From the UHGV virus genome UHGV-1368795: 49,493 nucleotides of DNA, one strand, 5' to 3'. A model generated the notes under the pieces. It was given only the letters and a program-made list of their open reading frames with translations, did no database searches and was not told where the DNA came from. The stretch's first letter is position 1, and every line of letters begins with the position of its first letter. Position numbers and translations under genes: made by a program. This DNA is from a virus. Shown here piece by piece: positions 11 through 20,236 of this stretch.

Positions 11-661
11 TTACAAATCCAAAAGTGTCGTAACCTGACTGGCAACATTCGTTGCGGCTGTCTTCACATTGATATAACCACGCTCAATCAGTCCGGATAT
101 GGATGTGCTGGAAACGTCATTACTGTTCAACTGATACTGTGCCGGTTGTGAACCGTTCGCCACTCGGTCAAGCGTGACAATCTGCTGCAGTTCAGCAACA
201 AATATCAGTCCGTTCTCATTCTCCGGGTCTTTAGAGCGCCCGATACGCTGAATGACCATATTGTTCAGCGTGATTTCACCCGTATCCACTGTGAATACCT
301 GGCCGGAGTACATGAAATCAAGCAAAGTGTTCAGTGTCGTACTGGAGCGAGTTTCGTTTGAGCCGCTCAACCACCCTGCGAACAGACCCGCGCCAGTGGC
401 TATGAACGGATTGTCATCGACGAGATTTGTTAATGCCCCGGTGAAATCGGTGATACTAACTTTCAATGGGTTGTTCGATACCGCACCCGTCATCGTGTAA
501 CGAATAGGTTGATAAATGATGTGGTCTGCAATTGGCGTACCTGTCTCAATGGGGTATTGCACGATGTCCACACTGGCATCAAGGTCATCAGACAGGACAG
601 CATCGAACTGAAGCGACCCAAGCTGTGGGCCGCGCTTTACCAGAAGGTTAATTAAACTCAT
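11..661 (-). CDS. tail/baseplate-associated virion protein (hypothetical)
   Basis: 216-aa ORF. Its ATG overlaps the stop of the upstream SLT-domain tail gene (ATGA). It is the last gene of the tape-measure module. Confidence 0.4.
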   Translation of the reverse strand: MSLINLLVKRGPQLGSLQFDAVLSDDLDASVDIVQYPIETGTPIADHIIYQPIRYTMTGAVSNNPLKVSITDFTGALTNLVDDNPFIATGAGLFAGWLSGSNETRSSTTLNTLLDFMYSGQVFTVDTGEITLNNMVIQRIGRSKDPENENGLIFVAELQQIVTLDRVANGSQPAQYQLNSNDVSSTSISGLIERGYINVKTAATNVASQVTTLLDL

Positions 662-2082
662 AATATGTATGCCTTACCTTGTCTGAATCGTTCCTCAACA
701 CGTTGCCACACATCACCGACAGTGATGTAACCTTTATACCCCGTGTCAAGCCCTGCGTTCTGATTGTACGCTGTAGAAGGTGATGAGTACATCACGGTTG
801 TGGAAGGTTTACCGATGAATGCCGGACTGAATACAGCCATGTACACATCGCCCATTGTCTTATAACGCCCTTTATACTGATTGAAATAATCAGTGATCGG
901 ACCTCTCACCTGTTCGGCTGCGGTCATTGACAGGATGACATTTTTATTACGACCGTACTTACTCTGAAACGCACTTGTCCAGCCGACATTAGTAAACTGA
1001 ATCAGTCCCACTGCACCAGATTTACTGTTCTTCGCCTGGGGATTGAAGTTAGACTCCGCAGAGATTACAGCCATAATCCAGTTAGGACTGATACCCAGAC
1101 TTTGTCCAAGTTTACGTACCTCGGTGCGGAAATCCTGCTGCTGACTGGCATCCTCACCCTGTACACCCGCGCGACCGTAAATAAGACGATTACCAACGTC
1201 AGTATTTGTCGTGGTGGTATCCATTGACCCGGCCCGCACAGCTTTGACAAACGTGTACCAGTCAGGACCATGTGTGTCACCGGTGTGCTGAATGGTCTGA
1301 ACGTTCCAGTCACCTTCCAGTTTAGCGTCAATGGTCGTCTGGAACTCCACTGCCCCGAAATCGAATTTAGGCCATTTAGATTCAATGTTAAGCACCGATG
1401 CAGGTGTCATACGGGGGTCAAGACGCATCTTAACGTCACAGAATACACCATCAATACCGCCGTGAAGCGTGGGTGCATCAATCATCCCGGTTGCGGAACT
1501 GATTTTGACAGGCGTGGCTTTACGGTCATCAGATGGAAATCCGACGAACACCTGCCCAGCGTACAGATGCCACTCGAAGCCGTATGCTTTAGCCAGAATG
1601 TCAAGTTCCTTACTGATGTCGGAGCTAACGTTGTAGCCACCAGCCATGACAATAGAGTTAAATTTGTCCACACTATTGACAAGGTATAGTGGCTTTGACC
1701 AGTCCTGTGCGAGACTGGTCAAGACGTCAAACAATGTCACGCCTTTACCGAAACTTGCGCTCGTTGTCCCTCCGTCGAGCACGTTGCTACCGCTGCGACA
1801 CGTCACACGGGTGATAATGTCGGTGCCGTCACGAATGGTGAAAACGTTAGTGACAAACCCGGTGAAAATCTGACCAATGCGCGACTGATATCCGGCGCGA
1901 AAAACAACGGTCTGATTCGGTTCAATCTTCGTTGTTGGCGCGAGGTTCCACAAGCGAAACTCACAGGTACTCAGACTGTCGCCGGTATACGTTGTCACAT
2001 CGAACGAGCACCGGAGCATCGGGTACGACTGTGTAATGAAATTCTTTGTGTCAATGAGTATTTCATACTGGCGCAAATCCAT
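658..2082 (-). CDS. tail protein with C-terminal lytic transglycosylase (SLT) domain
   Basis: 474 aa. The C-terminal segment GISPNWIMAVISAESNFNPQAKNS...GLIQFT carries the family-1 lytic transglycosylase signature with a catalytic Glu-Ser. This is typical of a tail-associated peptidoglycan hydrolase. Confidence 0.7.
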   Translation of the reverse strand: MDLRQYEILIDTKNFITQSYPMLRCSFDVTTYTGDSLSTCEFRLWNLAPTTKIEPNQTVVFRAGYQSRIGQIFTGFVTNVFTIRDGTDIITRVTCRSGSNVLDGGTTSASFGKGVTLFDVLTSLAQDWSKPLYLVNSVDKFNSIVMAGGYNVSSDISKELDILAKAYGFEWHLYAGQVFVGFPSDDRKATPVKISSATGMIDAPTLHGGIDGVFCDVKMRLDPRMTPASVLNIESKWPKFDFGAVEFQTTIDAKLEGDWNVQTIQHTGDTHGPDWYTFVKAVRAGSMDTTTTNTDVGNRLIYGRAGVQGEDASQQQDFRTEVRKLGQSLGISPNWIMAVISAESNFNPQAKNSKSGAVGLIQFTNVGWTSAFQSKYGRNKNVILSMTAAEQVRGPITDYFNQYKGRYKTMGDVYMAVFSPAFIGKPSTTVMYSSPSTAYNQNAGLDTGYKGYITVGDVWQRVEERFRQGKAYIL

Positions 2083-2084
2083 TG

Positions 2085-3470
2085 TCAGTAACTCCTTTGC
2101 CGGGTCTGGTCAATTGCCTGCGGATACACCTGCGTCTCGAGATGATTCACGGTGTAGCGGCCAATTGCGTTACCGTCCAGTATCACGTCACCCTGCGTGG
2201 TGAAATTGCCATTAAGCTGAATTGGACGGTTTATGGACTCCATAATCTGATTCAGCTGCTGGCTTTGCTGCGCGTAATTATTGGTCACCGGACTTGCTTC
2301 GGCACCATATGAACCGTCGTTGGTCGCGGGGTTGTACAGTGAATTGTTTCGACGTAATGCGGAGAGTGTATTATCATCTACCGTTCTGTTATCGGAATCG
2401 TTGACCCAATTCTCCCTTTTTGCCCAGAACGGTGTACCACCCCATGCAGGGGTTTCGACGGTGGATGATTTGTTATTAATTGTCGCATCATTGGCATTTG
2501 TACCCAGGTTGTTAATCCAGTCATCCATTTTCTTAATCCACGGGATAGACTGCATTGCATTTTCATACGCCTTATACAACCCGTGTTCGGACACATCTTT
2601 ACCAAAGGAGCTGGTTTTCAACCAGTTATCGAGTCTACCTACGACACCGGATATAGTATTACTCAGACTGGTAATATCTGGCACGAGCATGTCGGCAATG
2701 GTGTTGCCAAGACTCTCGAACTTTTGTTGAGTGTCAATCATAGTCTGATTGATTGCGTTCAGTGCAGCATTATGTTTCTCGGTGTAACCCATTTCAGCAG
2801 CACGGGCTTTTGACACTTCCAGCGTTGTAGCGCCGAACTCCTGCCACACTCTGACGGTAGCCGGGTCGAGACCTAAAACCTCCGCCACGTTGCTCTGACG
2901 CGTCGTATCGAGGCGCTGGAACTGCCCGGCAATGTCGCTGTAAATATCCTCGCGCGTGCGCCCCGTGGGATTATCAACACGAATCCCTGCAACCGCCAGT
3001 TGCTGAATCATCCCGGCGTCACCGGTCTGAATGCGGTTAATCCCGCGCTCGATATTTAAAAGGCTGTTTGTTGTTGCTTGCCGGTCACCACCGCGCTGTT
3101 CGGCCAGTGCGCCAAGTCCATAAACCTCAGTCGGTCCGAACTGACTGGTTGCAAGCTGGTTGTTCAGGTCGTAAGCCTGTTGCGCTTTCTTCGACTCAAA
3201 CGCCCACGCTGCGCCGACACCCGCGGCAACACCAGACATCGCAAGTCCGGCACCTTTGAATGTGGCAACCAGACTCATAATGCGTGATTTTGAATTTTCT
3301 ACGCCGGTTTTAACGCCCTGGTCAAGAGACTTACCGACGTCGTCCATCTGACCACCGGCTTGCTCTGCCGATTTGCCGAGATTGTCGATGTCTTTTTCAG
3401 CCTGTTCAGCACCTTTACCATCGTAAGAGATACCAAGACCGATGAGGAACTGCGTGATGATGTTAGCCAT
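2085..3470 (-). CDS. putative tail tape measure protein
   Basis: 461 aa. The N-terminal half looks coiled-coil and there is a Gly/Ala-rich hydrophobic stretch (GAGLAMSGVAAGVGAAWAF). It lies directly downstream of the G/GT chaperone pair. Confidence 0.5.
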   Translation of the reverse strand: MANIITQFLIGLGISYDGKGAEQAEKDIDNLGKSAEQAGGQMDDVGKSLDQGVKTGVENSKSRIMSLVATFKGAGLAMSGVAAGVGAAWAFESKKAQQAYDLNNQLATSQFGPTEVYGLGALAEQRGGDRQATTNSLLNIERGINRIQTGDAGMIQQLAVAGIRVDNPTGRTREDIYSDIAGQFQRLDTTRQSNVAEVLGLDPATVRVWQEFGATTLEVSKARAAEMGYTEKHNAALNAINQTMIDTQQKFESLGNTIADMLVPDITSLSNTISGVVGRLDNWLKTSSFGKDVSEHGLYKAYENAMQSIPWIKKMDDWINNLGTNANDATINNKSSTVETPAWGGTPFWAKRENWVNDSDNRTVDDNTLSALRRNNSLYNPATNDGSYGAEASPVTNNYAQQSQQLNQIMESINRPIQLNGNFTTQGDVILDGNAIGRYTVNHLETQVYPQAIDQTRQRSY

Positions 3471-16189: not shown

Positions 16190-16300
16190 AACCATACGCA
16201 TACGAAGTGACGACATATCTGGTCCGAGCGGGCAGTGTGGCGCATAACAACGCTGTTATGTTCGGGTATCAACTGAAACCACTGTATGAGGGTGAGTGAG

Positions 16301-16501
16301 ATGACCAACACCATCCCACGCTACCCAACCGGGACACTTGTGAAGTTATTCCCTGACGGTGTCGTTACCGGCACTGTTGAAAATGTTGTTGCAAATGACC
16401 CGCCGCAGTATTGGGTCAAATGGGACGATGGTAATTACAGCTGTCACGCACAGCGCGATTTGAAACGAGTGGGGACATTGTATGGACCTTCTTCTGCTTA
16501 G
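16301..16501 (+). CDS. hypothetical small protein
   Basis: ORF in the plus-strand islet, starting MTNTIPRYPTG. Confidence 0.4.
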   Translation: MTNTIPRYPTGTLVKLFPDGVVTGTVENVVANDPPQYWVKWDDGNYSCHAQRDLKRVGTLYGPSSA

Positions 16502-16534
16502 TGTCGGCGTTGTGATTTGGGTCGCATATTTAAG

Positions 16535-16564
16535 TTGACGAGTTCGTCAGGGATGACGTATACT
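16535..16564 (+). promoter_or_regulatory. promoter TTGACGAGTTCGTCAG-N-TATACT
   Basis: Palindromic -35 element, 18-nt spacer and a near-consensus -10. Confidence 0.55.
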
Positions 16565-16597
16565 CAGTTCATCAACAACAGAGAGGGTGACACAAAA

Positions 16598-16747
16598 TGA
16601 ACACATTACTCCCCGGCTACAACCGCCCCGTATCAGAGGCGCGCATTGTCGATAAAGAACTGTTAAAGAATGCACAACAGCTTGCACGCAAGCATGAAGG
16701 TTGGGCGCTCGCTAACGCTGTGTTACGTGAGGCGTATGGAAAATGAA
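16598..16747 (+). CDS. hypothetical small protein
   Basis: 49-aa ORF with a GAGGGTGA RBS. Read directly from the sequence. Confidence 0.35.
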
Positions 16748-16940
16748 CTATAAACCCATCAAGGCGGTAATGCTCCGCAACAATGACCGGATTATCGATG
16801 TGGACGGTATTATCACCGTGACAAACTTCAAACTGAACTTCCGCGAAGATATCGTGACATTTACCGCGACCAAAGAGGATGGTTCGGTATCTGAACGATG
16901 GATAGCGATGGACCGACTTGTCAATAAGGTGGTGGGTTAA
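16743..16940 (+). CDS. hypothetical small protein
   Basis: 65-aa ORF with an ATGA overlap to the next gene. Confidence 0.4.
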   Translation: MNYKPIKAVMLRNNDRIIDVDGIITVTNFKLNFREDIVTFTATKEDGSVSERWIAMDRLVNKVVG

Positions 16941-17128
16941 TGGGTATTATTAAAGGTGTACTAATTACCCTGCTCGCAGGGTGGGTAATTCTGGCAACAA
17001 TCGCCACGCTGCCGCTGGAACTGGAATACAAGTGGCAAGCATGGGCAATTGTAACGTGGGGACCAGTCGTTGTCGTTGCTGGTCTGTGGGAAGTGGTGAA
17101 TCGGGTATGTGGAGGGCGTGGGAAATGA
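16940..17128 (+). CDS. small membrane protein (2 TM)
   Basis: Two hydrophobic helices. Confidence 0.4.
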   Translation: MGIIKGVLITLLAGWVILATIATLPLELEYKWQAWAIVTWGPVVVVAGLWEVVNRVCGGRGK

Positions 17129-17231
17129 TTGATGTACTCAACTTCATTGCTGATAACTGGTTCGGAACATTAGTATTTGGTTACCTACTGTTCCTGGGCG
17201 TCGAAAGTTTGATTGAAACGTGGAGGGGTAA

Positions 17232-17420
17232 ATGACCGTACTCATGTGGTTTCTTGTCTGGCGCTGGGTGGTCATACTGCACATGACGGACGGTACTTTT
17301 TATTCGAATAACCTGCGCCACAGAATTTTAATGACGCTCCATAACGACAACGCTTACGGTTGCCGCAAACACCCTGTTATCTATAACGACATGTGCCGCA
17401 TTGTGAGAGGTGGGAAATGA
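17232..17420 (+). CDS. hypothetical small protein
   Basis: 62-aa ORF ending the islet. Confidence 0.3.
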   Translation: MTVLMWFLVWRWVVILHMTDGTFYSNNLRHRILMTLHNDNAYGCRKHPVIYNDMCRIVRGGK

Positions 17421-17428
17421 ACGGATGA

Positions 17429-19282
17429 CTACTTCTTAGCCTTATACCGCTCCACTGCTGCCGCTGTGACTGGTCTCGCCACACAGCGGCAATTGCTTAC
17501 GGCAAAATTATGTGATACAAATAAACCTCTTTCCATTTGGAGATTATGCACATGGCCGCTAAATTCCCTGAAAGTCTTATCGATAATGCGTACCAATTGA
17601 TGCTTGATGGTCACAGTGTCAAAGCCGTTGGTGAAATTCTCGGCGTCGGTGCCGATGCACTCAGTAAACGAATTCGCGCCCGGGGTCTGGAAATCCCCAA
17701 AACCAAACGCACTGCGCACAATCGCCAAAATATACCGCTTGAACAGATTGTGACGCGTATCGACGCTGGTATGAGTGTCAAAGCAATTGCTGAAGAACTG
17801 AACACTTCTCGCAATGTCATCACTCGCATTCTCAACGAGTCTGGAATAAAGCAAGCCAACCGCAGCGAGGCGATGTTCATTCGGATGAGTAAAACCAGCG
17901 CTCACGAACGACAACAACTTACACGCGCTGCTCACGACGCTGTCAGGGGCAAAAGTCAAACCTTTGACCACAGATGTAAGATTGCTGTCACACGGTGCAT
18001 CAACCAAACTGAACACTTCTTCGGCCCTGGTGAGAAAGAGTTCAAAGAAATTCTTACCCAGCGTGGAATCGAATTCGTCGGGCAATACCCAGTCGAAGTC
18101 TATAACCTCGATTTCCTCGTTTGCGGAAATGTCGCCGTGGAACTCACCACCAAGTGCCCGAACAGGTTTACCACTGACCCCTATCAACTGAGCCGCATTA
18201 AAAAACTCGCTGAACACAATATTCGAACTGTGGGCGTCTTTTTCAGAGATGTTGAAAGTCTGTTGCGGAACGTAGACGATATTATCACCAACATTCAACA
18301 AGTGAGCAGCGACGAAACCTTTATCGGTAAGCACCGGGTGATTAGGTGTACATTCGATGCGTTCACCAGATTCCGTGACCAGAACGGTAAGTTCGCCGCT
18401 AAACCAATGCCTAAACGCTTTTTCAGCACCGTAGAAGACGTTCAATGGTGAGGTGCCCGGGAAACAATTTATCGGCTGACCCGGAAATGTTGGTACACCA
18501 TCGACGACCGGTAAATCGTCCCAGCTGAATACACCTTCACCGAATCCCACATCACGTTTGGCGACCTCCACATGGCTATGACGTACCCGCTCATCCTGTG
18601 ATGTGGTCCATTTAAAGTAAGTTATTCCAGAATTAACCTGACGAATACGGTTCATGTCACCCTGTATTTTACTGGTCTGGTCCCGAGCAATAAGTTTGGC
18701 GCGACGTTCCGTGATACCGAATTGTTTAACGAGCGCTTCCTCGATGTAACTGGGGCGCATACCGTTACGCATGTTGGTCATGACAATGTTCTGCACCTGC
18801 TCCAGATACTGAGCCGGAATAGACTGAATGAGTTTAGCGTTCTGATACGATGCAGCGCTGAGATATTCCTGCAGCTGTGTATCACCGCCGTACAGATTGA
18901 TAGCGAATGAGCGGGCGTTATCCTTTGCCGCAGTCTGTACAAACTGTGACGCGATGGTTTCGGCCTGACGACGAGCAAACGCGCCAAGCCACCGTGTGAG
19001 CAACTGGTTAATCGCCGAGGTGATAGTGTCACTCCATCCATCACACCAAACGATGTTACCGACATAGTGAGATGGTTCGTGGTTGTGAATTTCCCTACCT
19101 TCTTCATCCACACAGAAATCATGATATCCCGCCACGTGTCGTTCTACATACTCTGCGTCCTGCGCATACTCTGGCGCAAGCTGTTTCACCAGTGGCACGA
19201 TGTTAGCATCCACATCCTCACGAACAAGCTGTGCAACCTGTTTCAGCTGGCGATAATAATTTAATTCTGTTTGTCGTGACAT
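17429..19282 (-). CDS. Mu F-like head morphogenesis protein interrupted by an intein
   Basis: Residues 1-272 carry the Phage_Mu_F motif (WTTSQDERVRHSHVEVAKRDVGFGEG). The extein junction PGQPIN | CRCVARP... restores the conserved NCRC motif of this family. The insert carries intein blocks A (CFPGTSPL), B (TPNHPVLTDKGFVAAHLLNVGD) and F (GLFVSHNFAVSN), followed by a +1 Cys. Confidence 0.7.
   Translation of the reverse strand: MSRQTELNYYRQLKQVAQLVREDVDANIVPLVKQLAPEYAQDAEYVERHVAGYHDFCVDEEGREIHNHEPSHYVGNIVWCDGWSDTITSAINQLLTRWLGAFARRQAETIASQFVQTAAKDNARSFAINLYGGDTQLQEYLSAASYQNAKLIQSIPAQYLEQVQNIVMTNMRNGMRPSYIEEALVKQFGITERRAKLIARDQTSKIQGDMNRIRQVNSGITYFKWTTSQDERVRHSHVEVAKRDVGFGEGVFSWDDLPVVDGVPTFPGQPINCFPGTSPLNVFYGAEKAFRHWFSGELTVLVTESGERIECTPNHPVLTDKGFVAAHLLNVGDNIVYVPQQTFNISEKDAHSSNIVFSEFFNAAQLIGVSGKPVRALGGEFHGDISANEEIEVIDFDWVLPDEFDSTLGKNFFELFLTRAEEVFSLVDAPCDSNLTSVVKGLTFAPDSVVSSACKLLSFVSAGFTHPNEHRLAAVGLLYSRLVENASDDIARSVQFFSNCFDTHTSVDTRHNLFKRYILAIVRSAFGFGDFQTPGANSFTECIGTDAENFTNGFDTVTIKHQLVRIIDKTFREFSGHVHNLQMERGLFVSHNFAVSNCRCVARPVTAAAVERYKAKK
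17492..18466 (-). other. intein (325 aa) within head morphogenesis gene
   Basis: Starts at Cys codon 18464-18466 and ends ...AVSN at 17492-17494, with the +1 Cys at 17489-17491. The central 220 aa have no LAGLIDADG or HNH motif and are the exact codon-aligned antisense of the plus-strand HEG gene. Confidence 0.6.
17552..18451 (+). CDS. HTH + Vsr/DUF559-like (PD-(D/E)XK) homing endonuclease-like protein, encoded antisense inside the intein
   Basis: TGGAGA RBS 8 nt before ATG 17552. Two HTH motifs (SVKAVGEILGVGADALSKRIRARG and SVKAIAEELNTSRNVITRILNESG). GIEFVGQYPVEVYNLDFLVCGNVAVELTT aligns to the DUF559/Vsr core GFKFRRQHPIGNYIVDFYC...LVIELDG. Confidence 0.6.
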   Translation: MAAKFPESLIDNAYQLMLDGHSVKAVGEILGVGADALSKRIRARGLEIPKTKRTAHNRQNIPLEQIVTRIDAGMSVKAIAEELNTSRNVITRILNESGIKQANRSEAMFIRMSKTSAHERQQLTRAAHDAVRGKSQTFDHRCKIAVTRCINQTEHFFGPGEKEFKEILTQRGIEFVGQYPVEVYNLDFLVCGNVAVELTTKCPNRFTTDPYQLSRIKKLAEHNIRTVGVFFRDVESLLRNVDDIITNIQQVSSDETFIGKHRVIRCTFDAFTRFRDQNGKFAAKPMPKRFFSTVEDVQW

Positions 19283-19284
19283 GC

Positions 19285-19313
19285 TTGACGGCCTCGTCAG
19301 TATGGTGTAGAGT
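19285..19313 (+). promoter_or_regulatory. promoter TTGACGGCCTCGTCAG-N-TAGAGT
   Basis: Lies directly upstream of islet 19351-20206. It overlaps the start codon of the minus-strand head morphogenesis gene. Confidence 0.55.
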
Positions 19314-19350
19314 GTACGTGTTAGTTAAATATTATCACAGGAGAAGAGAG

Positions 19351-19656
19351 ATGACACAGTTTAAAGGTACACCCGGTCCGTGGGAAATCAAGCCGGAAGA
19401 AGTTGACAGACCGTATATTCGAATTCGCGGAACACAATGTGGCGGACGATTCAAAGTTGCAAACGTTTTGTCCCCCGATTACGACGGCGTTCATCATCGT
19501 GAAGCCGACGAAACTCGCGCAAATGCACGTCTCATTGCTGCCGCTCCGGAACTGCTGGAGGCGTTGCAATTAATGCTGGATTCTCAAGTATTACCGGTTT
19601 GGCATCAATCAATTGCCCGCGCAGCCATCAACAAAGCAACAGGAGAGACAAAATGA
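19351..19656 (+). CDS. hypothetical protein with NARLIAAAPELLEALQ motif
   Basis: AGGAGAAGAGAG RBS. The core motif is shared with gene 35641-35904. Confidence 0.5.
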   Translation: MTQFKGTPGPWEIKPEEVDRPYIRIRGTQCGGRFKVANVLSPDYDGVHHREADETRANARLIAAAPELLEALQLMLDSQVLPVWHQSIARAAINKATGETK

Positions 19657-19988
19657 CATTACTTGAACTATTGCGTCAGGAATTACCAGAGCGTGGCGGT
19701 TGGCCGAAGGGTGTGGCGGCAATGGCGCAAGACGCCGACGGCGCGGTACAAAATTATATCGATACCCACGACATCAGAATAAACTATGAATTCGCGCAAG
19801 GTAATTCAAGAATTGCTTACAGCTATAGTATTGACTCAGGCGAATGCGAAGTTTCAACCGACAGATTAACCGCCATTGTCACACGTGAACAATACGAAGC
19901 GGAATGCGCGATTGATGAAATGGTTCGGTTGTCAGGCGTGTCAATCGGTGCGGCTAAGATTCTGTATGATGCGGGGTATCGGAAATGA
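19653..19988 (+). CDS. hypothetical protein
   Basis: 111 aa, ATGA coupled. Confidence 0.45.
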   Translation: MTLLELLRQELPERGGWPKGVAAMAQDADGAVQNYIDTHDIRINYEFAQGNSRIAYSYSIDSGECEVSTDRLTAIVTREQYEAECAIDEMVRLSGVSIGAAKILYDAGYRK

Positions 19989-20206
19989 AACGTTGTTCAG
20001 TGTTTTGTTACTATGAGGGGATGGATGGCATTGGGCGAAGTATCTGCAGCGGCAATCACACTTGTGATATCGAATATGAATTTTTTGTGAGTGCACCAGA
20101 GTATGTCAAAAATACTACCGACTATCTGATGAACGAATTAAAACCGACTTACGCTAATCTTGCGCGGGTGGTTTTAAAGCAAGTGACAATCTTTCCCGGT
20201 GACTAA
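19985..20206 (+). CDS. hypothetical Cys-rich small protein
   Basis: 73 aa, ATGA coupled, followed by a hairpin terminator. Confidence 0.4.
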   Translation: MKRCSVFCYYEGMDGIGRSICSGNHTCDIEYEFFVSAPEYVKNTTDYLMNELKPTYANLARVVLKQVTIFPGD

Positions 20207-20210
20207 CCAA

Positions 20211-20236
20211 ACTGGCCCGTTACTGGGCCAGTTTTG
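20211..20236 (+). terminator. rho-independent terminator (ACTGGCCC-loop-GGGCCAGT-TTTTG)
   Basis: 8-bp stem and T-run. It overlaps the 3' end of the convergent portal gene. Confidence 0.55.

Follow-up and report, generated by a model that had tools for sequence, protein, structure and literature searches.

A MuF-like head gene of a Klebsiella phage with a probable intein whose linker is the antisense of a homing-endonuclease gene

A MuF-like gene with an in-frame insert

We analyzed the virus genome UHGV-1368795, a stretch of DNA of 49,493 nucleotides (hereafter, the window), in which a phage head morphogenesis gene contains an insert that is probably an intein and that is read on the opposite strand as a homing-endonuclease gene. 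The region belongs to a Jedunavirus-like Klebsiella myophage and matches about 79 phage records at 80–95% identity. The head gene, located on the minus strand at positions 17429–19282, codes for a MuF-like head morphogenesis or minor capsid precursor of 617 amino acids made of N-extein, intein, and C-extein, as identified from the list of open reading frames (ORFs), Pfam, and PHROG. In agreement with a preliminary description of this DNA, which had placed a MuF domain at residues 1–272, the Pfam family Phage_Mu_F matches residues 162–273 (E-value 1.7e-10) and PHROG 324 matches residues 2–273. PHROG 15127 (“head protein”) extends over residues 63–615 (E-value 9e-196), implying that the long form of MuF already exists in public phage genomes.

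The boundaries of the insert emerge directly when the precursor is aligned with its insert-free counterparts in phages KpV52 and FZ14, which read ...PGQPIN/CRCV... (slashes mark the insertion site here and below). The precursor contains 325 additional residues exactly at this point, followed by Cys598, with the junctions ...GQPIN/C273-FPGTSPL...FAVSN597/C598-RC.... The intein-less site of the KpV52 allele is GTTCCTACTTTTCCGGGGCAACCAATAAAT/TGCAGATGTGTAAGTATCGCTGTACCAGAT. All on the minus strand, the N-extein (residues 1–272, ending in ...PGQPIN) occupies positions 18467–19282, the intein (325 residues, Cys273 to Asn597, an exact in-frame insert with respect to the insert-free alleles) positions 17492–18466, and the C-extein CRCVARPVTAAAVERYKAKK with its stop codon positions 17429–17491, the latter delimited by both the insert-free alleles and the reconstituted target site. 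These alleles agree with the insert previously proposed, from Cys273 to a terminal SN followed by a +1 Cys, and with its predicted QPIN/CRC junction.

On the plus strand, a frame exactly codon-aligned with the 617-residue ORF (phase 0) is open from position 17525, its first possible start being TTG 17537 (304 residues, to 18451). The coordinates of the two ORFs thus bear out the exact reverse-complement codon register noticed earlier. The plus ORF lies wholly within the insert, from a start 15–20 codons away from the C-terminal end of the intein to a stop 5 codons away from its N-terminal start. It is not confined to the intein “middle”, as first thought, but covers almost all of the intein and runs over the codons of splicing blocks A/B and F.

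The splicing domain

The insert was compared with those of other MuF proteins in an alignment of 15 sequences bearing the same insert, 23–96% identical. Cys1 (C273), T312 and H315 in block B, V578 and N580 in block F, N597, and the C598-R-C triplet are invariant, the two block B residues supporting the initial recognition of this motif. Block F takes the form GHV(Y/H)NLQ.. in the family and block G the form ..V(S/H)N/C, and the precursor GHVHNLQMERGLFVSHNFAVSN matches the family block for block. Three of the 15 members have the classic HN/C end, the penultimate intein residue of the precursor is Ser, and metagenomic relatives terminate in ...GNGIVTHN/CRC. Model and conservation define an N-terminal splicing region at residues 273 to ~345 (block A CFPG.., block B TPNHPVLT; positions 18250–18466, minus strand) and a C-terminal one at residues 560–597 (block F GHVHNLQ, block G FAVSN; positions 17492–17605, minus strand), immediately followed by Cys+1.

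In a structural model of the precursor, built on just 15 sequences, the mean pLDDT (a score predicting the local distance difference test) per 10-residue block is 65–89 over residues 271–340, 85 at 561–570, 83 at 571–580, and 64–67 at 581–600. Strands are found at residues 562–583, 587–590, and 593–596, so that the C-terminal splicing region is complete. The final beta-strand had been thought to be missing because a coincidental HNF led to a mis-registration. Foldseek searches of the Protein Data Bank (PDB) with this model retrieved almost only inteins (TliVMA, PI-PfuI, Ssp DnaB, Mtu RecA, DnaE, gp41-1), with probabilities up to 1.0 and modest E-values, from 4.9e-4. Motifs and fold support the identification of the insert as a class-1-type intein at the N/CRC site of the MuF-like gene, which would be removed by splicing.

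The endonuclease gene

We place the homing-endonuclease gene at positions 17552–18451 of the plus strand (299 residues from ATG 17552) on the basis of the ORF list, the length of its relatives, the structural model, and the selection pattern. The preliminary description had noted a Shine-Dalgarno sequence, TGGAGA, and counted the ORF from position 17537; a putative ribosome-binding site, GGAG, is indeed present at positions 17539–17542 (plus strand), but it lies 9 nucleotides upstream of ATG 17552, which is the likely start and would yield a protein of 299 residues like the database relatives P0001–P0004. Both putative signals are antisense to block F, minus-strand H-V-H-N-L-Q corresponding to plus-strand L-E-I-M-H-M, and the pattern L-E-(V/I)-x-x-M upstream of the endonuclease start is conserved in a nine-locus alignment.

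The AlphaFold (AF2) model of the protein, based on a 37-sequence alignment, has a mean pLDDT of 90.1. As predicted, two N-terminal helix-turn-helix (HTH) modules are recognizable at residues ~12–48 and 68–101 (304-residue numbering; positions 17570–17839, plus strand): HTH_7 matches residues 68–101 (E-value 8e-8), the tandem-HTH protein 2lvs_A gives a profile match over positions 10–98 (E-value 2e-7), and the model shows helices here. They are followed by a nuclease core of the Vsr-like/EDxHD type at residues ~160–245 (E166, Y189-N190-L-D192, VAVE202, R220; positions 18014–18271, plus strand), defined by its fold, and by a C-terminal beta-hairpin at residues 265–303 (304-residue numbering; positions 18329–18445, plus strand; pLDDT ~95) that is antisense to blocks A-B. 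Matches to the fold include Vsr and the homing endonuclease I-Bth0305I, and the family profile matches PDB 3R3P with an E-value of 1.2e-4. The Vsr/DUF559-like core anticipated from the sequence is therefore right as to fold, but Pfam, at E<1, and NCBIfam gave no DUF559 or Vsr match for the window’s endonuclease, and the assignment accordingly rests on profile and fold evidence. Relatives of the protein carry PF18741, a PD-(D/E)xK restriction-endonuclease-like family.

Two frames under different selection

Codon-aligned antisense frames are those most often open by chance, and in most records the plus ORF is missing from the annotation. Both facts would suit the alternative that this ORF is a by-product of the antisense frame and no gene at all, in which case the in-frame domain of the intein, on the minus strand, would be novel or degenerate. 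Strand-specific selection, which can be computed directly, indicates the opposite. Relatives of the endonuclease were found by tblastn in 112–113 phage records and, in those with functional annotation, the gene overlying them is nearly always annotated as MuF, minor capsid, or head morphogenesis. When both readings of the same DNA are compared between loci, the score of the plus-frame protein is the higher one in 33 of 36 pairs. A codon alignment of eight loci, guided by the protein sequences, shows the lowest conservation at the third position of the plus frame over plus-strand residues 11–197, and this pattern reverses at residues 244–308 and 0–10, which are antisense to blocks A/B and F, respectively. 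The C-terminal hairpin falls in the first of these reversed segments, with the minus frame dominating its codon-position pattern. Substitutions in the middle of the insert are mostly silent in the plus frame (13 of 17 with respect to phage KpTDp1 and 10 of 12 with respect to P12620-1), and most of them alter a residue of the minus frame. In the same genome pair, the N-extein provides an internal control: 55 of its 68 substitutions with respect to KpTDp1 are synonymous on the minus strand. About 85 codons are constrained from both strands, and close relatives diverge there by 0–1.7%.

The minus-strand reading of the middle is of a different kind. This linker (residues ~346–559, about 215 residues; positions 17606–18249, minus strand), delimited by the model, codon counts, and substitutions, is the antisense translation of the endonuclease gene. 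No LAGLIDADG or HNH domain match was found in it, as originally remarked, and residues 342–559 of the precursor model mostly have pLDDT values <50, so that the linker is probably unstructured. The only motif of the minus frame that is invariant in the middle, FHGD, is the antisense of the catalytic VAVE of the plus frame, and VAVE is kept in a free-standing copy of the gene as well (see below). A stop in the minus frame requires a TTA, CTA, or TCA codon in the plus frame, and at every locus with a contiguous intein the number of these codons in the plus frame is zero. Expected counts, derived from local codon usage, are 6–16 in each of six loci of low or middle GC content, where the probability of finding none is ~1e-3 to 1e-8 each. 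In the endonuclease frame of the window 8.7 would be expected over 308 codons (P = 1.4e-4). The absence of these codons from the six loci indicates that read-through of the minus frame is itself under selection. The initial proposal that both frames are selected is thus correct in that both are kept open and the plus frame is conserved, but the middle of the minus frame is selected only for the lack of stops and not for its amino-acid sequence.

Acinetobacter phage IME285 supplies a natural control. It encodes a free-standing homolog of the endonuclease (455–1348, plus strand; 31% identity, E-value 2e-36), convergent with an intact, insert-free MuF gene (1342–2055, minus strand; ...LPM/CKC...) with which it shares a 7-nucleotide overlap of 3′ ends. 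Its antisense frame has 13 stops, corresponding to 13 TTA/CTA/TCA codons (9 TTA, 1 CTA, 3 TCA) for 14 expected, and the plus ORF is intact nonetheless. The C-terminal hairpin is retained in this copy, which is possibly an ancestor of the intein-embedded form or an escapee from it.

Codon positions, synonymous counts, and the free-standing copy thus rule out that conservation of the plus ORF merely reflects conservation of the minus frame. Furthermore, the plus protein folds confidently into HTH modules and a Vsr-like core and the minus-frame middle does not, and an exhaustive profile search recovered 1,970 cluster representatives of the nuclease family at E<=1e-30. The plus-strand ORF is a gene, as indicated by five independent lines of evidence: fold, deep conservation, codon positions, substitutions, and the free-standing control. 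The by-product explanation, to which we give practically no weight, is effectively refuted by the score comparison, the codon positions, the stop avoidance, the fold, and the substitutions.

Distribution and mobility

The antisense-endonuclease architecture is present in 12 of the 13 loci examined, namely the Klebsiella window, Edwardsiella phage MSW-3, Aggregatibacter phage Aaphi23, two Vibrio phages, a Salmonella Jerseyvirus, Pseudomonas phage BR161a, two Gordonia phages, and three metagenome contigs, and it spans phages of seven host genera. In the Gordonia phages Vivi2 and Malisha both frames are likewise open in phase 0, and the antisense module is common to phages of Actinobacteria and Proteobacteria. 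Among the 138 best full-length hits of the nuclease family, 98 show an antisense imprint of block B, compared with 1.1% of shuffled tails; this imprint is a proxy for embedding in an intein, and a recently escaped copy, or conservation of the endonuclease’s own structure, would score alike.

Most annotated phage records show only the MuF ORF and leave the endonuclease ORF uncalled, and word-indexed searches of called proteins retrieved only 8 relatives with a single sequence and 42 with an alignment. Set against the 1,970 representatives, these figures indicate that homing endonucleases of this type often escape annotation in phage genomes, those of Klebsiella phages considered for therapy among them. 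The three contigs for which we fetched the context all end just past the endonuclease ORF, and the truncation of the MuF ORF may be the reason why the antisense gene was called on them.

The insert occurs in 8 of the 79 matching phage records (tblastn identity >=95%). Between the window and KpTDp1 or P12620-1, the intein diverges by 0–2.6% and the adjacent extein by ~11%, that is, 4–6 times more. The intein, the C-extein, and the first ~20–70 nucleotides of the N-extein differ by 0–4% from these two phages; a patch at positions 18535–18684 differs by 18–34%, and the remainder of the MuF gene by ~6%. This sharp change in divergence, 70–220 nucleotides from the intein junction, looks like a recombination boundary beside a mobile element. 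Homology to KpTDp1 stops at the MuF stop codon. The low-divergence block fits a recent transfer with what would be a short co-conversion tract.

The C-extein past the intein may be long and carry an effector- or toxin-like domain. That of Aaphi23 (MuF residues 597–798) matches the C-terminal part of the XopAD/skwp model (E-value 3e-29), and several MuF genes of Salmonella Jerseyviruses are annotated as NAD+--asparagine ADP-ribosyltransferase. In such cases the intein separates the MuF core from a variable C-terminal module.

A mobile intein with an antisense homing endonuclease

We favor the interpretation that the window contains a mobile class-1-type intein at the conserved N/CRC site near the 3′ end of the MuF gene, the linker of which is the codon-aligned antisense of a plus-strand homing-endonuclease gene, and we assign it a probability of about 0.8. 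The insert boundaries, the folds, the strand-specific selection, the stop-codon avoidance, the wide conservation of the architecture, and the signature of recent transfer, all computed directly, are what it builds on. The splicing (Hint) domain would be encoded on the minus strand in two pieces of ~73 and ~38 residues, linked by ~215 residues without conserved sequence or predicted fold. The MuF precursor would be translated straight across this linker and the Hint halves would then associate and excise the 325-residue intein, leaving a MuF protein of 292 residues with a restored ...QPIN-CRC... junction. A plus-strand transcript would allow translation of the endonuclease which, in mixed infections, would cut intein-less MuF alleles near the N/CRC site; recombinational repair would copy the intein together with the endonuclease gene into the cut allele (homing). 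Selection would therefore act on three things: the sequence of the plus-strand endonuclease, the splicing blocks of the minus strand, and the exclusion of TTA, CTA, and TCA from the plus frame.

Several observations weigh against this interpretation. The precursor reaches 22.3 bits with the Pfam model Intein_splicing for a cut-off of 35.8, and 18.8 bits with TIGR01445 (intein_Nterm) for a cut-off of 24.5; TIGR01443 (intein_Cterm) does not match it, and its penultimate intein residue is Ser, not His. The low pLDDT of the linker is a pointer to disorder and not a proof, given a model built on 15 sequences. The endonuclease lacks the general-base His of the G.WH motif (H213 in I-Bth0305I), with VAVELTTKC in the window in place of VAVE.FGG.WH. 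A scan for promoters and terminators over positions 16200–19800 yielded nothing above shuffle expectation and called none for the endonuclease gene. The double coding constraint could be a partial cause of the low divergence of the intein, so that the argument for mobility leans mainly on the sharp boundary and the patchy distribution. Finally, that the precursor splices, that the plus ORF is translated, and that its product cleaves DNA at the proposed target are steps that we infer.

The weak scores and the penultimate Ser would be expected if the insert did not splice, MuF either tolerating an insertion of 325 residues or being processed by a protease, with the motifs as relics and the frame kept open only for the short C-extein; in addition, the accessible literature yielded no splicing data for any member of the family. 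The comparison of the minus strand with intein models, which the preliminary description had called for, leaves the window copy under the cut-offs, but the homologous inserts in Salmonella phage SGPC and in Vibrio phage 1.197.A score above the curated cut-offs of both TIGR01445 and TIGR01443. Even relatives that are just 23–30% identical share Cys1, Thr and His of block B, the terminal Asn, and Cys+1 without exception, which would be pointless in a relic. Minus-frame selection dominates exactly over the splicing blocks, and matches to the Hint fold are present. Moreover, the C-exteins of Aaphi23 and Vivi2, 200–700 residues long, contain a further domain, so that precise removal of the insert matters. 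We consider a non-splicing insert very unlikely.

The missing His bears on the enzyme. The native motifs of I-Bth0305I are WNVD and AIEVNGVYWH, and the construct crystallized as 3R3P carries D196A and H213A (PMC3239194). The window’s endonuclease keeps E166, D192 (YNLD192), and E202 (VAVE202); from the composite E, D, H, D motif, its clade thus has E and D and lacks His. The His is also missing in Edwardsiella phage MSW-3, Aaphi23, Vibrio phage PvVp04, and the Acinetobacter copies, no residue of this clade obviously substitutes for it, and it is present in 110 of 138 members of the wider family. Catalytic activity of the window clade is hence not assured. Its endonuclease might no longer be an active homing enzyme and survive as a DNA-binding protein, a nickase, or a regulator, the intein being inherited mostly vertically or by ordinary recombination and the architecture being kept by the two-frame constraint. 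Yet E166, N190, D192, E202, and R220 are invariant or nearly so across the 37-sequence alignment, and the His-less clade is nevertheless under purifying selection, which extends over the whole nuclease domain. The reduced divergence of the intein relative to the extein, the sharp recombination boundary, and the patchy distribution among Jedunaviruses also speak against a loss of homing, and the His-less form occurs free-standing beside the same target gene as well, as expected of an active mobile gene. We regard an inactive enzyme as unlikely and retain the mobile intein with a homing endonuclease as the preferred interpretation.

More tentatively, and with somewhat less than even odds in our estimation, the overlap may be an old, co-adapted two-strand module and not a recent accident in which an endonuclease gene fell into an intein, with ~85 codons functional on both strands, the translation signals of the endonuclease located in the antisense of block F, and its hairpin in the antisense of blocks A-B. 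If so, the two genes would be locked together, the loss or shift of one damaging the other, and the expression of the endonuclease might be timed by the convergence of its transcription with that of the late MuF gene.

Whatever its age, the locus is a clear example from nature of one set of codons that yields two proteins, one per strand, where strand-specific selection is directly visible and the free-standing copy serves as a built-in control. It also presents a Hint domain maintained by evolution in which the endonuclease-insertion site is occupied by a linker of ~215 residues that is predicted to lack structure; this would be useful for intein engineering if splicing were confirmed.

Comparison with known systems

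The preliminary description held that an intein with its homing endonuclease on the opposite strand was an undescribed arrangement, a view that the literature contradicts. Antisense LAGLIDADG endonucleases in inteins (Ssp DnaX, Chloroflexus SpoVR-like protein) date back to Gorbalenya 1998 and Gogarten et al. 2002, as cited in the accessible part of a preprint by Gosselin, Arsenault & Gogarten (bioRxiv 10.1101/2025.01.02.630785). The same part of this preprint describes antisense-strand homing endonucleases in PhagesDB inteins, among them VSR-like enzymes within the full inteins that interrupt MuF-like minor capsid proteins, and its version of 2025-10-20 states that the in-frame middle of antisense-endonuclease inteins has no recognizable fold. 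The supplementary table lists Vivi2 gp14, Angelicage gp15, Affeca gp15, Fosterous gp12, and Malisha gp5 as “minor capsid, MuF-like ... VSR -1 ORF”, and the preprint gives ...ATCAAC/TGCCGGTGC... as the Vivi2 insertion-site consensus.

The five Gordonia loci tabulated there are those matched by the plus ORF of the window, at the same N/CRC site. The endonuclease is 35% identical to that of Vivi2 (E-value 2.5e-39) and 27% identical to that of Malisha (E-value 1.3e-19), and the minus frames can be aligned too. As far as the preprint can be compared, the two sets share a MuF-like host protein, the N/CRC site, a codon-aligned -1 frame endonuclease within a contiguous intein ORF, and sequence homology. 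The window element therefore belongs to a known kind. Unlike the Gordonia set, which comes from a survey restricted to PhagesDB, as far as described, it resides in a Klebsiella Jedunavirus-like myophage with relatives in Edwardsiella, Aggregatibacter, Vibrio, Salmonella (Jerseyvirus), and Pseudomonas phages, and its clade lacks the catalytic His. Codon-position, stop-avoidance, and synonymous-substitution statistics were not found in the accessible part of the preprint. Our analysis adds to the published description the phages of Gammaproteobacteria, a quantification of stop avoidance and strand-specific selection in low-GC genomes, the overlap of the endonuclease ORF and its putative translation signals with the splicing blocks, the free-standing copy, and the loss of the His in one clade, and it extends an architecture recently described in actinobacteriophages to phages of Gram-negative hosts.

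With the antisense LAGLIDADG inteins, to the extent that the preprint covers them, the window shares a contiguous intein, an opposite-strand endonuclease, and an intein frame that must stay open through the antisense; it differs from them by its Vsr-like/EDxHD nuclease, its host gene, and the organisms concerned. Fractured genes are a further point of comparison. According to the accessible text of Dassa et al. 2009 (PMC2677866), they consist of split inteins whose halves flank a free-standing endonuclease gene of the Vsr-like or GIY-YIG type, and free-standing endonuclease genes were proposed to invade mini-inteins. The window resembles these systems, as described there, in that phage-like DNA contains a Vsr-like endonuclease gene of the free-standing type at the point of an intein where endonucleases are inserted. 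However, host gene and intein are split into two trans-splicing ORFs in fractured genes, whereas the window has a single uninterrupted ORF of 617 residues. A keyword search of the accessible text of that article found no opposite-strand case. Our observations support the model in which free-standing endonuclease genes colonize mini-inteins. Apart from the preprint, full-text searches of the literature brought up no account of this arrangement, and the work on fractured genes and on I-Bth0305I contributed systems for comparison but no antisense case. Three further articles considered as precedents for an antisense-endonuclease intein (PMC8966425, PMC6669764, PMC3556154) turned out to be irrelevant on inspection.

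As for the nuclease itself, the window’s protein has in common with EDxHD/Vsr-like homing endonucleases the Vsr-like nuclease fold and separate N-terminal DNA-binding modules, here two HTH. The prototype of the EDxHD family, I-Bth0305I (PDB 3R3P; Taylor et al. 2011, PMC3239194), is encoded on the sense strand in a group I intron of recA and has NUMOD-type modules and the catalytic His213, whereas the HTH modules of the window’s endonuclease are of the resolvase type, a C-terminal hairpin is added, and a counterpart of this His is lacking.

Free-standing homing endonuclease genes can adjoin their target gene in phages, as in those of the T4 type. The IME285 copy follows this pattern: it belongs to the same nuclease family and lies beside the same target gene, ~50 nucleotides from the equivalent of the intein site, but has no intein, an intact MuF, and unconstrained codon usage.

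Other features of the region

The MuF gene of the window has a second in-frame insertion of ~41 residues (QDAEYVERHVAGYHDFCVDEEGREIHNHEPSHYVGNIVWC) at residues ~40–80 (positions 19044–19166, minus strand), with pLDDT <50 in the precursor model. It is absent from KpV52, FZ14, KpTDp1, and P12620-1 and present in JYSS3, RCIP0093, and the “Acinetobacter” phage LAPP1 at 90–92% nucleotide identity. The latter phages apparently lack the intein, so that the two MuF indels assort independently. Two of these records have peculiarities of their own: “Acinetobacter phage LAPP1” is ~92% identical to Klebsiella Jedunaviruses here, possibly an oddity of host labeling, and the 106.5-kb record of “Klebsiella phage P12620-1”, with no classification beyond “Viruses”, is ~2x the usual genome size, possibly an assembly oddity. 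Both remarks concern the record pair MN923124.1 and PQ569648.1.

Other annotated homing or HNH endonuclease genes lie between MuF and the portal gene in FZ14 (2644–3207) and also in KB2 and 1611E-K2-1, and the head-gene region of related Jedunaviruses seems to be a hotspot for endonuclease genes. The corresponding interval of the window (19283–20219) contains small plus-strand ORFs.

On the other side of the MuF gene, a promoter-like site with 10 of 12 matches is found at positions 16535–16564, and small plus-strand ORFs at positions 16743–17420, in a flank that is not homologous in KpTDp1, stop 9 nucleotides before the MuF stop codon. No terminator-like site was called between these small ORFs and the endonuclease gene, and read-through from them could be the source of the endonuclease transcript.

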